Of a stretch of DNA of 64,000 nt, positions 45,380 to 49,299 are shown piece by piece. Source of the DNA: Escherichia coli (GTDB lineage: Bacteria > Pseudomonadota > Gammaproteobacteria > Enterobacterales > Enterobacteriaceae); assembly GCF_044324785.1 (NCBI RefSeq), contig NZ_CP172127.1; one strand, written 5' to 3'. The notes below the pieces were generated by a model that did no database searches, was not told the origin of the DNA, and saw nothing but the letters and a program-made list of their open reading frames with translations. Position numbers and translations under genes: made by a program. Numbering within the stretch: the first letter of the stretch is position 1; each line of letters opens with the position of its first letter.

Positions 45380-46087
<708 letters not shown>

Positions 46088-46170
46088 TACTTTCAGCCCG
46101 CGTTGTCGCGGGCTTCCCATCTGTAATCCTCCCTGATTCTTCTCTGATATGGTGCTAAAAAGTAACCAAT

Positions 46171-46193
46171 AAATGGTATTTAAAATGCAAATT
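46171..46193 (+). promoter_or_regulatory. Candidate NsrR operator upstream of yeaR
   Basis: AAATGGTATTTAAAATGCAAATT resembles the NsrR inverted repeat (AANATGCATTT-N-AAATGCATNTT); about 70-90 nt upstream of yeaR, a known NsrR target. Confidence 0.4.
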
Positions 46194-46259
46194 ATCAGGC
46201 GTACCCTGAAACGGCTGGAATAAACCATTTTCAGCGCATTCACCGAAGGAGGGAAAAGG

Positions 46260-46619
46260 ATGCTGCAAATCCCACAGAATTATATTCATACGCGCTCAAC
46301 GCCTTTCTGGAATAAACAAACTGCGCCTGCCGGAATATTCGAACGTCATCTTGATAAAGGAACGCGCCCGGGAGTTTACCCACGCCTTTCCGTTATGCAT
46401 GGGGCGGTCAAATATCTCGGCTACCCTGATGAACACAGTGCAGAGCCTGATCAAGTGATCCTTATCGAAGCGGGGCAGTTTGCGGTGTTCCCTCCAGAAA
46501 AGTGGCACAACATTGAAGCCATGACTGACGATACTTATTTCAACATTGACTTCTTCGTTGCCCCTGAAGTCCTGATGGAAGGTGCGCAACAACGGAAAGT
46601 CATTCATAACGGGAAATGA
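46260..46619 (+). CDS. yeaR: DUF1971 protein YeaR
   Basis: 119-aa ORF MLQIPQNYIHTRSTPFWNKQTAPAGIFERHLDKGTRPGVYPRLSVMHG... Confidence 0.85.
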   Translation: MLQIPQNYIHTRSTPFWNKQTAPAGIFERHLDKGTRPGVYPRLSVMHGAVKYLGYPDEHSAEPDQVILIEAGQFAVFPPEKWHNIEAMTDDTYFNIDFFVAPEVLMEGAQQRKVIHNGK

Positions 46620-46622
46620 ATC

Positions 46623-46805
46623 ATGGGCAAAGCAACGTATACCGTGACCGTCACCAATAACAGCAATGGCGTTTCTGTCGATTATGAAACAGAGACGCCG
46701 ATGACTTTGCTGGTGCCAGAAGTGGCGGCTGAAGTGATAAAAGATCTGGTGAATACCGTGCGTTCTTATGACACGGAAAACGAACATGATGTTTGTGGTT
46801 GGTAA
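46623..46805 (+). CDS. yoaG: Small protein YoaG (60 aa)
   Basis: 60-aa ORF MGKATYTVTVTNNSNGVSVDYETETPMTLLVPEVAAEVIKDLVNTVRSYDTENEHDVCGW; 3 nt after the yeaR stop. Confidence 0.8.
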   Translation: MGKATYTVTVTNNSNGVSVDYETETPMTLLVPEVAAEVIKDLVNTVRSYDTENEHDVCGW

Positions 46806-46952
46806 TTATCTCTGATCGTTGATGGCGCAATTTCTGCGCCATCGCAAAAAAATCCTCCGTGATGCTCGTCACAAATTTTGCCCTCCCGATGTTGTGCTAT
46901 GCTTTTTATCAGCGACTAACCCGCTAATGCAAAACAGATAAGTGAGGAAACA

Positions 46953-47201
46953 ATGGGCATTCTGTCATGGATTATTTTTGGGCTTATTGCCGGTATTCTG
47001 GCGAAGTGGATCATGCCAGGTAAAGATGGTGGTGGATTCTTTATGACTATCCTGCTGGGGATAGTCGGTGCCGTAGTCGGCGGATGGATCAGCACGCTGT
47101 TTGGCTTTGGTAAAGTCGATGGCTTCAATTTTGGCAGCTTCGTGGTTGCCGTTATTGGCGCGATTGTCGTGCTGTTTATCTACAGAAAGATTAAAAGTTA
47201 A
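46953..47201 (+). CDS. yeaQ: GlsB/YeaQ/YmgE-family small membrane protein YeaQ
   Basis: 82-aa ORF MGILSWIIFGLIAGILAKWIMPGKDGGGFFMTILLGIVGAVVGGWISTLFGF... Confidence 0.85.
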   Translation: MGILSWIIFGLIAGILAKWIMPGKDGGGFFMTILLGIVGAVVGGWISTLFGFGKVDGFNFGSFVVAVIGAIVVLFIYRKIKS

Positions 47202-47214
47202 CGTTTAAATTGCA

Positions 47215-47248
47215 CAAAGGCTGCACACAGGCAGCCTTTGCTATTTTC
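47215..47248 (+). terminator. Intrinsic terminator after yeaQ
   Basis: caaaggctgc-acacag-gcagcctttg hairpin followed by ctattttc. Confidence 0.7.
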
Positions 47249-47259
47249 TAGATGTGACG

Positions 47260-47334
47260 TTACCACCATCCCAGCTCAGTGCCGAGTACGACAATAATCG
47301 CCACACCCATCATAATAATCGTTGTTTTTTTCAT
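47260..47334 (-). CDS. yoaJ: Tiny hydrophobic protein YoaJ (24 aa)
   Basis: Hand translation of minus strand MKKTTIIMMGVAIIVVLGTELGWW; start 2 nt after the yoaK stop. Confidence 0.7.
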   Translation of the reverse strand: MKKTTIIMMGVAIIVVLGTELGWW

Positions 47335-47336
47335 CT

Positions 47337-47435
47337 TTATGCTCCCGGGGCAGCATAGCCGCCAATAAAAAACCATGCTAAAAATACGACCGCTGTAATA
47401 AAGATTACAACCGGAAAAATAATACCGATTCGCAT
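47337..47435 (-). CDS. yoaK: Tiny hydrophobic protein YoaK (32 aa)
   Basis: Hand translation of minus strand MRIGIIFPVVIFITAVVFLAWFFIGGYAAPGA; sits between dgcP and yoaJ on the same strand. Confidence 0.7.
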   Translation of the reverse strand: MRIGIIFPVVIFITAVVFLAWFFIGGYAAPGA

Positions 47436-47467
47436 GTTATCACCAATCAAAAGGATGTGAATACGCC

Positions 47468-48493
47468 TCAGGAATGTAGCGCTGGATGCGCGACAAAAGG
47501 GGTTTTCTGTTTGTGTTTTTTCTCCTGATACATCGCGATATCGGCAGCATGCAGGGCACTGTCTGCATCGGTCGTTTCAGGATCGACTTCTACTATGCCA
47601 AGACTGGCACCGGGATAATACAAATCAACATCACCTAAGTGATATTCTCCACGTATTTGCTGTTGAATACGTTCTCGCAGCGACGAAATATCCGCATTCT
47701 CGTTGTTCAGTGAAACAACCAAAAACTCATCACCGCCGAGACGACCAATAACTTCGCCATTTTGCTGGAGCGTATTAAGGCGCTCGCCAACCTGAATGAG
47801 GAACAAATCACCACTATTATGACCAAAACGATCGTTGATTAATTTGAAGTTATCCAGATCGATAAACGCGATCATTATCTTATGGTTAAGATGTCGGGCG
47901 AGAGAAAACAGCGTCGTCAGGTTTTCAAAAATCGCCCGCCGATTCGGTAGCCCGGTTAACGAGTCGGTATACGATTGCGCAATCAGCGCAGCATTGGCTT
48001 CGCGCAGCTGTTCTACCAGCGCCTCTTTTTGAATATATTGTGCAATCAGTCCGGCGAATAACTGCAAAACCTGTTCCGCGCGTTCACTCCACTGGCGCTT
48101 CTCACTACTGGCGGCGCAAAGCGTGCCATAGAATGATCCATCCGGTAAGTGAATTGGCGTGCTCAGAAATGTGGTGATGCCAAGATTGCGTGCCGCAATA
48201 CAGTCGCCCCAACGGTCAGGGACTTCATCGCTGAAAAAGCAGTTTTCATCAATGGCGCGTTTGCATAACGAGTAATCCCACGAGACGGTAAAATTCTCCG
48301 GGATGTGCATTTTCTGGCTGTTACGGGCAAACATAATATGCTGCAGGCGCGCTTCGACATCCACTTTGGTCAGGTAGGTTGATTCCATATCAGTGACCAT
48401 TTCCAGCATCTCCAGAAGCTGTCGGACCAGGCTTTCCAGTGACTGTTCTTTGGCAAGGGATTGCGAGACGCGGGCGATAATCTGATCTGACAC
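47468..48493 (-). CDS. dgcP: Diguanylate cyclase DgcP (YeaP), GAF-GGDEF; GTG start
   Basis: Track ORF 47468..48622 trimmed to GTG-initiated (M)SDQIIARVSQSLAKEQSLESLVRQLLEML... (341 aa); GGDEF active-site motif RLGGDEF present. Confidence 0.85.
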   Translation of the reverse strand: MSDQIIARVSQSLAKEQSLESLVRQLLEMLEMVTDMESTYLTKVDVEARLQHIMFARNSQKMHIPENFTVSWDYSLCKRAIDENCFFSDEVPDRWGDCIAARNLGITTFLSTPIHLPDGSFYGTLCAASSEKRQWSERAEQVLQLFAGLIAQYIQKEALVEQLREANAALIAQSYTDSLTGLPNRRAIFENLTTLFSLARHLNHKIMIAFIDLDNFKLINDRFGHNSGDLFLIQVGERLNTLQQNGEVIGRLGGDEFLVVSLNNENADISSLRERIQQQIRGEYHLGDVDLYYPGASLGIVEVDPETTDADSALHAADIAMYQEKKHKQKTPFVAHPALHS

Positions 48494-48675
48494 GAAACAA
48501 CTCCAGGATACGGCGGGTAAATGCTGATTATTTAATCTTTGCAGGCATGATAAAACATCATCAACAAAGATGAAACAAGGCGTAATATGATTTGAGTGAA
48601 TGTAATAAAAATAGTGCTGCAAAACAAAACGATACCGCGATACTCTAAGCCTGGATAAATATGTGAGATCAATAA

Positions 48676-48930
48676 ATGAAAATTATCAGTTTTGTTCTGC
48701 CTTGCTTGCTGGTTCTGGCTGGTTGTTCAACCTCTTCTCAGCCAGAAGCACCTAAACCGCCGCAGATTGGTATGGCAAATCCGGCGTCGGTCTATTGCCA
48801 GCAGAAGGGCGGGACGCTCATTCCAGTGCAGACAGCGCAAGGGGTCAGCAACAATTGCAAATTACCGGGCGGTGAAACGATTGATGAATGGGCATTGTGG
48901 CGACGGGACCATCCGGCTGGTGAAAAATAA
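48676..48930 (+). CDS. yoaF: DUF333 lipoprotein YoaF
   Basis: 84-aa ORF with lipobox (LAGC) MKIISFVLPCLLVLAGCSTSSQPEAPKPPQIGMANPASVYCQQKGG... Confidence 0.8.
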   Translation: MKIISFVLPCLLVLAGCSTSSQPEAPKPPQIGMANPASVYCQQKGGTLIPVQTAQGVSNNCKLPGGETIDEWALWRRDHPAGEK

Positions 48931-48951
48931 CCGCCGGATGCTGTACTAAAA

Positions 48952-49299
48952 TCACAAGCTACGTAGCCAGTCGGCCAGCACCAGCGCATGGTTCTGCGTG
49001 GTGTTTTTTGCTGAGTAGAGCAGGGTCAGCGGCTGTTTTTTGGCGATGTCCGCCAGCCGCTTTCCTTCTTGCTCGTGTTGCGCCAGTTCTGCAAGATATT
49101 GCTCGCGAAAGGTTGCAAAATCGACGACTTCGCCGTGAAAGGCTTTGCGCAGTTCCGTTGACGGCGTGATTTCTTTATCCCACTCATCAAGGGCTAAATC
49201 GGTTTTTTTGATACCACGCGGCCAGAGGCGGTCGACCAGTACGCGATAACCATCGCTCTGTTCTGCCGGATCATAAACGCGTTTGCACTGAATATTCAT
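48952..49299 (-). CDS. yeaO: DUF488 protein YeaO
   Basis: Track ORF 48952..49320 trimmed to MNIQCKRVYDPAEQSDGYRVLVDRLWPRGIKK... (115 aa). Confidence 0.8.
   Translation of the reverse strand: MNIQCKRVYDPAEQSDGYRVLVDRLWPRGIKKTDLALDEWDKEITPSTELRKAFHGEVVDFATFREQYLAELAQHEQEGKRLADIAKKQPLTLLYSAKNTTQNHALVLADWLRSL

Follow-up and report, generated by a model that had tools for sequence, protein, structure and literature searches.

YoaK and YoaJ, a putative translationally coupled pair of single-helix membrane proteins encoded downstream of dgcP in Escherichia coli and other Enterobacteriaceae

Two very small genes, yoaK and yoaJ, follow the diguanylate cyclase gene dgcP in the window (the entire 64,000-nucleotide stretch of E. 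coli DNA that was analyzed). The reading that we favor, with a probability of about 0.6, is that they encode a coupled pair of single-helix proteins acting in the plane of the membrane, with YoaK as the core component, packing through an invariant helix face, and YoaJ as a lineage-specific accessory. The finding re-identifies annotated genes and is not novel. It therefore matters little as a discovery; it narrows where the function of yoaKJ is to be sought. The additions are modest, namely, the universality of the coupling arrangement, the survival of yoaKJ without dgcP, a YoaK lineage that occurs alone and in part on plasmids, and the definition of a conserved helix face. The leads that they offer are a coupled unit that outlives dgcP and, in the conserved YoaK core, a mapped face for mutagenesis.

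Two catalogued small genes at the end of the dgcP operon

yoaK lies at positions 47337 to 47435 of the minus strand, and its translation is MRIGIIFPVVIFITAVVFLAWFFIGGYAAPGA followed by a stop codon (32 aa). yoaJ occupies positions 47260 to 47334 of the same strand and is translated as MKKTTIIMMGVAIIVVLGTELGWW, again ending in a stop (24 aa). The yoaK stop codon (TAA, 47339 to 47337) and the yoaJ ATG (47334 to 47332) are separated by 2 nt. Upstream, dgcP (yeaP; 47468 to 48493, minus strand) is the first cistron and encodes a 341-aa soluble GAF-GGDEF diguanylate cyclase, as assigned from Pfam, RefSeq, and RNA-seq operon data; its stop codon (47470 to 47468) is 32 nt ahead of the yoaK ATG. RefSeq gives the gene order as yeaQ (plus strand), yoaJ, yoaK, and dgcP (all three on the minus strand), and yoaF (plus strand). 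The names, sizes, strand, and 2-nt spacing proposed in the initial annotation were exact according to the translations, coordinates, NCBIfam models, and RefSeq, and the single-helix character ascribed to both products was also borne out (GRAVY of 1.88 for YoaK and 1.22 for YoaJ).

YoaK matched the NCBIfam model NF033821 with 69.1 bits against a cutoff of 32 (E = 1.8e-19; residues 1 to 32 on profile positions 1 to 32 of 32), and YoaJ matched NF011343 (PRK14760) with 60.4 bits against a cutoff of 54 (E = 1.1e-16; residues 1 to 24 of 24). The YoaK product has the length (~32 aa), the one hydrophobic helix, the residues P8, W21, and F22, and the GGYAxP end of its family. In a broad YoaK alignment (A1), M1, P8, W21, and F22 were invariant and A15, G26, A28, and P30 were conserved in at least 90%, and all of these residues are present in the YoaK from the window. 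The YoaJ product likewise is a 24-aa open reading frame (ORF) with a GWW end and a start a few nucleotides from the yoaK stop. Neither protein shows any difference from its K-12 counterpart: YoaK is the type member of its family as it occurs in a different E. coli strain, and YoaJ has the same GWW end directly after yoaK. The 186-nt yoaKJ block differs from that of K-12 MG1655 by 1 nt (99.5% identity) and is in the same place after dgcP. It is near certain that the two genes are the already catalogued E. coli genes for small inner-membrane proteins. YoaK has no Pfam family (best E value, 0.19), and a sequence search of the PDB returned no chain matching YoaK or YoaJ at an E value of ≤10, hence no solved structure containing either. 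The Bacillus subtilis proteins YoaJ (expansin EXLX1) and YoaK are unrelated and share the names alone; most literature matches for "YoaJ" refer to the B. subtilis expansin.

A longer, 37-aa version of yoaK starting at a TTG codon (47337 to 47450) was considered and rejected, since the orthologues and the NCBIfam profile begin at the M-R/K codon. The latter start is preferred because it has a Shine-Dalgarno sequence of its own and matches the starts of the orthologues and the profile. This sequence, GGTGA (47440 to 47444), is within the 32-nt dgcP-yoaK spacer (47436 to 47467, minus strand), and an AGGTGA-type motif recurs ahead of yoaK in other genera.

By RNA-seq operon calling, yeaP-yoaK-yoaJ form one transcription unit (PMC4620388), in which yoaK and yoaJ are the last two cistrons. 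The initial annotation had seen no terminator between dgcP and yoaK, in agreement with a pattern scan that found no minus-strand terminator-like site there; the folding of the spacer RNA is unremarkable (z = −1.68). On the 3′ side of yoaJ there is an 11-bp GC-rich hairpin (47215 to 47240) and then the convergent yeaQ, so that no same-strand gene comes next. Lying between yeaQ (plus strand) and dgcP-yoaK-yoaJ (minus strand), the hairpin is part of both transcripts; it fits the terminator pattern on the plus strand only, and the minus-strand RNA has a folding energy of −21 kcal/mol (z = −2.45). In the other genera that were inspected, yoaJ is likewise followed by comparable GC-rich sequence, the similarity being one of sequence, not of folding. 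The hairpin is likely to be the end of the dgcP-yoaK-yoaJ operon.

DgcP is reported to be under vegetative sigma-70 control and to be abundant during growth (PMC5635695). Near E. coli yoaK, the lone promoter-like site on the minus strand overlaps the yoaK start codon, and the total of such sites is below chance. An antisense promoter-like site inside yoaJ (47288 to 47316, plus strand; ACGACA-17-CATAAT) is probably meaningless, as the region has 2 sites compared to 4.0 expected by chance. In Salmonella, a scan for consensus promoters ahead of yoaKJ returned no plus-strand sigma-70 site.

Conservation, selection, and translational coupling

Tiny ORFs readily arise by chance (the 3.5 kb from 45500 to 49000 overlaps 70 ORFs of at least 20 aa), and hence the reality of yoaK and yoaJ must rest on other evidence. 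A 1.8-kb stretch including the genes matches 5,418 of 5,426 complete E. coli genomes (best identity, 99.6%). The 186-nt yoaKJ block is found in 5,416 of the 5,426, with at least 99% identity in 4,891, making yoaKJ a single-copy component of the E. coli core genome. In E. coli NCCP 13717 (NZ_CP115984.1, 2313521 to 2313598; hit H52), only the yoaJ-side 78 of the 186 nt match and the annotation reads "hypothetical protein," which suggests disruption or rearrangement of the yoaKJ locus there.

A phmmer search of 1.84 billion representative proteins retrieved only 25 relatives of YoaK, all variations on the 32-aa sequence. When one genome per species was scanned with a narrower YoaK alignment (A2), 136 relatives were obtained, the best 80 of which were analyzed. 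Among these 80, yoaK was followed by a 24-aa yoaJ in 63 Enterobacteriaceae species loci, with YoaJ in the form M[RK]K[TS]T..A..G..GWW*. The genera with yoaKJ are Escherichia, Salmonella, Citrobacter, Enterobacter, Lelliottia, Leclercia, Silvania, Huaxiibacter, Pseudenterobacter, Klebsiella, Raoultella, Kluyvera, and Pseudocitrobacter.

The Nei-Gojobori pN/pS ratio, computed from 59 distinct haplotypes, is 0.14 in yoaK and 0.29 in yoaJ, against 1.1 to 3.3 for the shifted sense frames. Ratios of 0.26 (yoaK) and 0.40 (yoaJ) were obtained for the antisense frame with the shared wobble position, as expected for such a frame, and the remaining antisense frames are above 1. Variability at the first, second, and third codon positions is 0.13, 0.03, and 0.38 in yoaK and 0.18, 0.10, and 0.39 in yoaJ. 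Conservation under purifying selection raises both frames above chance, as real coding sequences. The initial annotation had held that these frames should be abandoned if they were neither translated nor conserved; they are conserved, and both proteins have been detected in published work.

The two genes evolve at different rates, YoaJ about twice as fast as YoaK (pN of 0.177 versus 0.095). Between Escherichia and Enterobacter, YoaK is hardly altered while YoaJ differs at ~10 positions. As YoaK is near constant while YoaJ diverges, there is no sign of compensatory coevolution of the two. Covariation between YoaK and YoaJ was accordingly dropped as a line of evidence, YoaK being almost invariant and the differences tracking phylogeny.

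In every one of the 60 scored loci, the distance from the yoaK stop to the yoaJ start falls between −4 and +3 nt, with values of −4 (an ATGA overlap; 8 loci), −1 (TAATG; 2 loci), 0 (26 loci), +2 (22 loci), and +3 (2 loci). In the window, the yoaJ Shine-Dalgarno sequence, GGGAG (47342 to 47346), falls inside the last yoaK codons; elsewhere the ribosome-binding motif is GGGGG or GGAGG, within the codons for the PG[AG] end of YoaK. With the yoaJ ribosome-binding site in the final codons of yoaK, ribosomes finishing yoaK would restart on yoaJ. This is the classic geometry of termination-reinitiation, and from its start and stop positions translational coupling of yoaK and yoaJ is strongly implied. 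Both peptides would then be made together, in a fixed ratio.

Being small and very hydrophobic, YoaK and YoaJ resemble the Hok, Ldr, and Ibs peptides, and one could conceive of them as type I toxin-like or pore-forming peptides, or else as leader peptides for a downstream gene. We regard this as scarcely credible. A single-copy, unrepeated core-genome locus under purifying selection across many genera does not fit a toxin, and no type I antitoxin RNA or any other curated Rfam family was found on either strand between 46000 and 49500 at an E value of ≤1. PADLOC and PHROGs returned no meaningful defense or phage family match for either protein. Tagged YoaK and YoaJ were overexpressed with no toxicity reported in a study where HokB was toxic (PMC10470546). 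As for a leader peptide or attenuator, no same-strand gene that it might regulate is found downstream of yoaJ, only the hairpin and convergent yeaQ.

YoaJ orthologues are underannotated outside Escherichia. Orthologues are present in L002, L005, and L013 to L066. Clear ones score 49.4 (Enterobacter), 46.0 (Kluyvera), and 36.9 (Salmonella) bits on NF011343, whose tight cutoff of 54 leaves YoaJ orthologues unnamed in most genera. YoaJ is absent from the gene tables at L002 (1843 to 1917) and L005 (4102 to 4176), the PLSDB tables being incomplete, and one Citrobacter record annotates a 17-aa ORF from an internal Met in its place. The 5′ end of yoaJ reads ATG-AAAAAAA-C, i.e., ATG plus seven A residues (47322 to 47334 in the window). 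This run is A8 in L003 (4103 to 4113) and A6 in L016 (~4103), and the frame is broken in both records; these indels are either sequencing errors or real slippage. Several database "proteins" from this locus (P0001, P0002, and P0016) are frameshifted read-throughs or, for P0002, a YoaK-YoaJ fusion, as a result of indels at the A run and in the GGG that precedes the yoaK stop.

yoaKJ without dgcP and YoaK without YoaJ

The initial annotation had raised the possibility that the two small proteins modulate DgcP. In this interpretation they would be dedicated modulators or membrane tethers of the cyclase, controlling its activity or placing it at the membrane. The common operon in E. coli speaks for it, as does the presence, in 55 of the 63 yoaKJ loci, of a same-strand dgcP orthologue immediately upstream (52 of them scored automatically, mostly with spacers of 9 to 57 nt, and L042, L053, and L055 added by inspection).

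The properties of the proteins themselves argue against it. DgcP consists of a GAF_2 domain (residues 17 to 155) and a GGDEF domain (residues 175 to 330; E = 5.7e-41) according to Pfam, and no membrane segment was found in it. YoaJ is integral to the membrane with an N-in/C-out orientation (PMC4597795), and YoaK was scored as having "dual" topology in reporter fusions (Table S1 in PMC10470546), which fits its single N-terminal positive charge. Only MR- in YoaK and MKKT- in YoaJ precede the hydrophobic helices (Table S1 in PMC10470546), and the cytoplasmic exposure of either protein is only 2 to 5 residues. For both, the assignment as single-helix inner-membrane proteins draws on the NCBIfam match and pN/pS, together with the helix face (see below) for YoaK and the published topology for YoaJ.

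The distribution of the genes argues in the same direction, intact yoaKJ without an adjacent dgcP being present in 8 of the 63 loci. In Salmonella enterica subsp. arizonae and diarizonae (L033 and L038; 3805 to 4175), dgcP is lost and yoaKJ is intact; homology to E. coli starts just 9 nt before yoaK, and the divergent yoaF is 196 nt upstream. Intact yoaKJ without an adjacent dgcP was also found in Citrobacter amalonaticus (L019, L020, and L022) and Citrobacter sedlakii (L016). In L020 and L022, the two C. amalonaticus loci covered by the comparison, 70 nt of the 3′ end of dgcP remain. Enterobacter asburiae TN152 (L029; 3647 to 3815) has an internal deletion of ~980 nt relative to strain AEB30 and has kept yoaKJ, and in Enterobacter sp. 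BIGb0383 (L059) yoaKJ is located elsewhere, with no adjacent dgcP. Loss or internal deletion of dgcP has thus occurred at least three times (Salmonella arizonae/diarizonae, C. amalonaticus/C. sedlakii, and E. asburiae TN152), and yoaKJ and dgcP have been separated in at least four independent events.

YoaK also exists by itself. Seventeen loci (L067 to L083) among the best 80 of the 136 relatives, from Kosakonia, Pluralibacter, and other Enterobacteriaceae, carry the YoaK variant MRIGIAFPILVFIVAVAFLAWFILGGYATPGS, which scores 67.9 bits on NF033821. There is no yoaJ anywhere in these loci and no adjacent dgcP or yeaQ; in L070, a dgcP-like gene is ~2 kb upstream of the solo yoaK. Solo YoaK is also encoded on a conjugative IncFIB plasmid of Klebsiella variicola (L004; 4001 to 4099), on a Pantoea plasmid (L006; 4001 to 4099), and, in a more diverged form (31.3 bits), on a Rahnella megaplasmid (L007; 4001 to 4099). 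The solo yoaK neighborhoods are conserved only within a genus (Kosakonia), not between genera, and offered no clue to function. Hence YoaK is able to stand on its own, YoaJ being an accessory confined to the dgcP-side locus. In the coupled-pair reading YoaK would be the core component, found alone in other genera and on plasmids, and YoaJ a faster-evolving accessory helix, Enterobacteriaceae specific and with a GxxxG-WW end.

With a soluble cyclase, minimal cytoplasmic tails, yoaKJ retained after dgcP loss, and solo YoaK paralogues with no cyclase adjacent, modulation of DgcP is unsupported, and we consider a dedicated partnership improbable. The survival of yoaKJ without dgcP and the scarcity of anything cytoplasmic to touch point instead to shared expression as the meaning of the operon link: the common transcript would provide common timing of expression rather than physical association with DgcP. 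Some functional link of yoaKJ to c-di-GMP signaling may exist, given that dgcP is upstream in 55 of the 63 loci.

Several database records in this set call for caution. L082, labeled Chryseobacterium sp. 18061, carries Enterobacteriaceae-type DNA that is 91 to 94% identical to L083 (Citrobacter sp. 18056), with an identical YoaK paralogue. Both are from one project, and the L082 assembly is probably mislabeled or contaminated. In the plasmid collection, some "plasmid" records (among H11 to H13, H20, L002, L003, and L005) are whole chromosomes of 4.8 to 5.4 Mb, and others are chromosome-like segments with the yoaF-dgcP-yoaK-yeaQ neighborhood, for example, a 10.9-kb Enterobacter record flanked by IS903B.

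A conserved helix face and its possible partners

Conservation in YoaK follows one side of the helix. At 100 degrees, which is also the best angle for the periodicity of the per-position entropy, the conservation moment reaches 8.9, compared to 3.2 ± 1.6 with the columns permuted (P = 1e-4). The invariant face comprises G4, I5, (F7) P8, I11, F12, A15, F18, L19, (W21) F22, and (G25) G26, and all variation is at positions 3, 6, 10, 14, 17, 20, and 24. Adding the solo paralogues leaves this face in place (P = 0.0016). YoaJ keeps K3, T5, A12, G18, G22, W23, and W24, with a G18xxxG22-WW end, and the periodicity of its conservation is marginal (P = 0.07).

Most likely, to judge from this pattern, the invariant face of YoaK packs against a conserved helix. 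In the coupled-pair reading, each protein would span the membrane with about one helix, the pair would act within the plane of the inner membrane, and we infer that the YoaK face binds a second copy of YoaK, YoaJ, or some larger membrane protein. As the solo YoaK also keeps the stripe, YoaJ cannot be its sole partner. Alternatively, the face could reflect requirements of membrane insertion or of the lipids instead of a protein partner. The suggestion in the initial annotation that a membrane partner is involved is in keeping with the one-sided conservation; no partner protein for YoaK or YoaJ was found here or is reported in the accessible literature.

Small single-helix proteins that bind larger membrane proteins include AcrZ (AcrB), MgrB (PhoQ), MgtS (MgtA), KdpF (KdpABC), and CydX (CydAB). 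YoaK and YoaJ are like these in being inner-membrane proteins of at most 50 aa with one transmembrane helix, and also in the conserved helix face and condition-dependent expression. They differ in being a putative translationally coupled pair and in that the sole large protein of their operon is soluble. KdpF and CydX share an operon with the membrane complex that they bind, whereas the only other cistron here is dgcP. The resemblance to proteins of the AcrZ or KdpF type is thus one of kind by analogy, not of membership.

The published data on the protease RseP bear on a different possibility, that YoaK and YoaJ have no specific partner and act on the lipid bilayer itself, through packing or the buffering of stress, or as substrates or competitors of RseP. 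YoaJ coimmunoprecipitates with RseP (PMC4597795), purified RseP cleaves both YoaJ and YoaK in vitro, and RseP lowers 3xFLAG-YoaJ levels in vivo (PMC10470546); many substitutions are, moreover, tolerated in the YoaJ hydrophobic core. The in vivo cleavage was, however, inconsistent between tags and absent with chromosomal RseP, for which reason both proteins were placed in class II (PMC10470546). An HA-MBP-YoaJ fusion remained uncleaved, and overexpressed YoaJ barely affected RseA cleavage (PMC4597795). Generic bilayer effects, in addition, need none of the ten invariant positions on one YoaK face. On balance, we think this explanation unlikely. A rise of YoaJ levels with diamide (Hemm 2010, as cited in PMC12542507) would also fit it; in the accessible literature, that rise and the RseP cleavage of both proteins in vitro (PMC10470546) are the only functional hints.

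A more elaborate form of the coupled pair can be drawn from the dual topology of YoaK, its weak charge bias, and its invariant helix face. YoaK and the N-in/C-out YoaJ would make up a fixed-ratio complex that reports envelope or thiol stress to local c-di-GMP production by DgcP. If true, this would be a new signaling module of small proteins; we hold it to be highly improbable. In a milder version, YoaK may form antiparallel homodimers whose orientation is fixed by YoaJ.

Both yoaK and yoaJ still appeared with unknown function in a 2022 listing (PMC9769844). YoaK-SPA was seen by immunoblotting, with a level near the bottom of the range for the early-identified small proteins (10.1101/511675). 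In a data set that lists yoaK as novel, with no verification recorded, its ribosome occupancy shifted about 2-fold with RyhB (PMC4666370).
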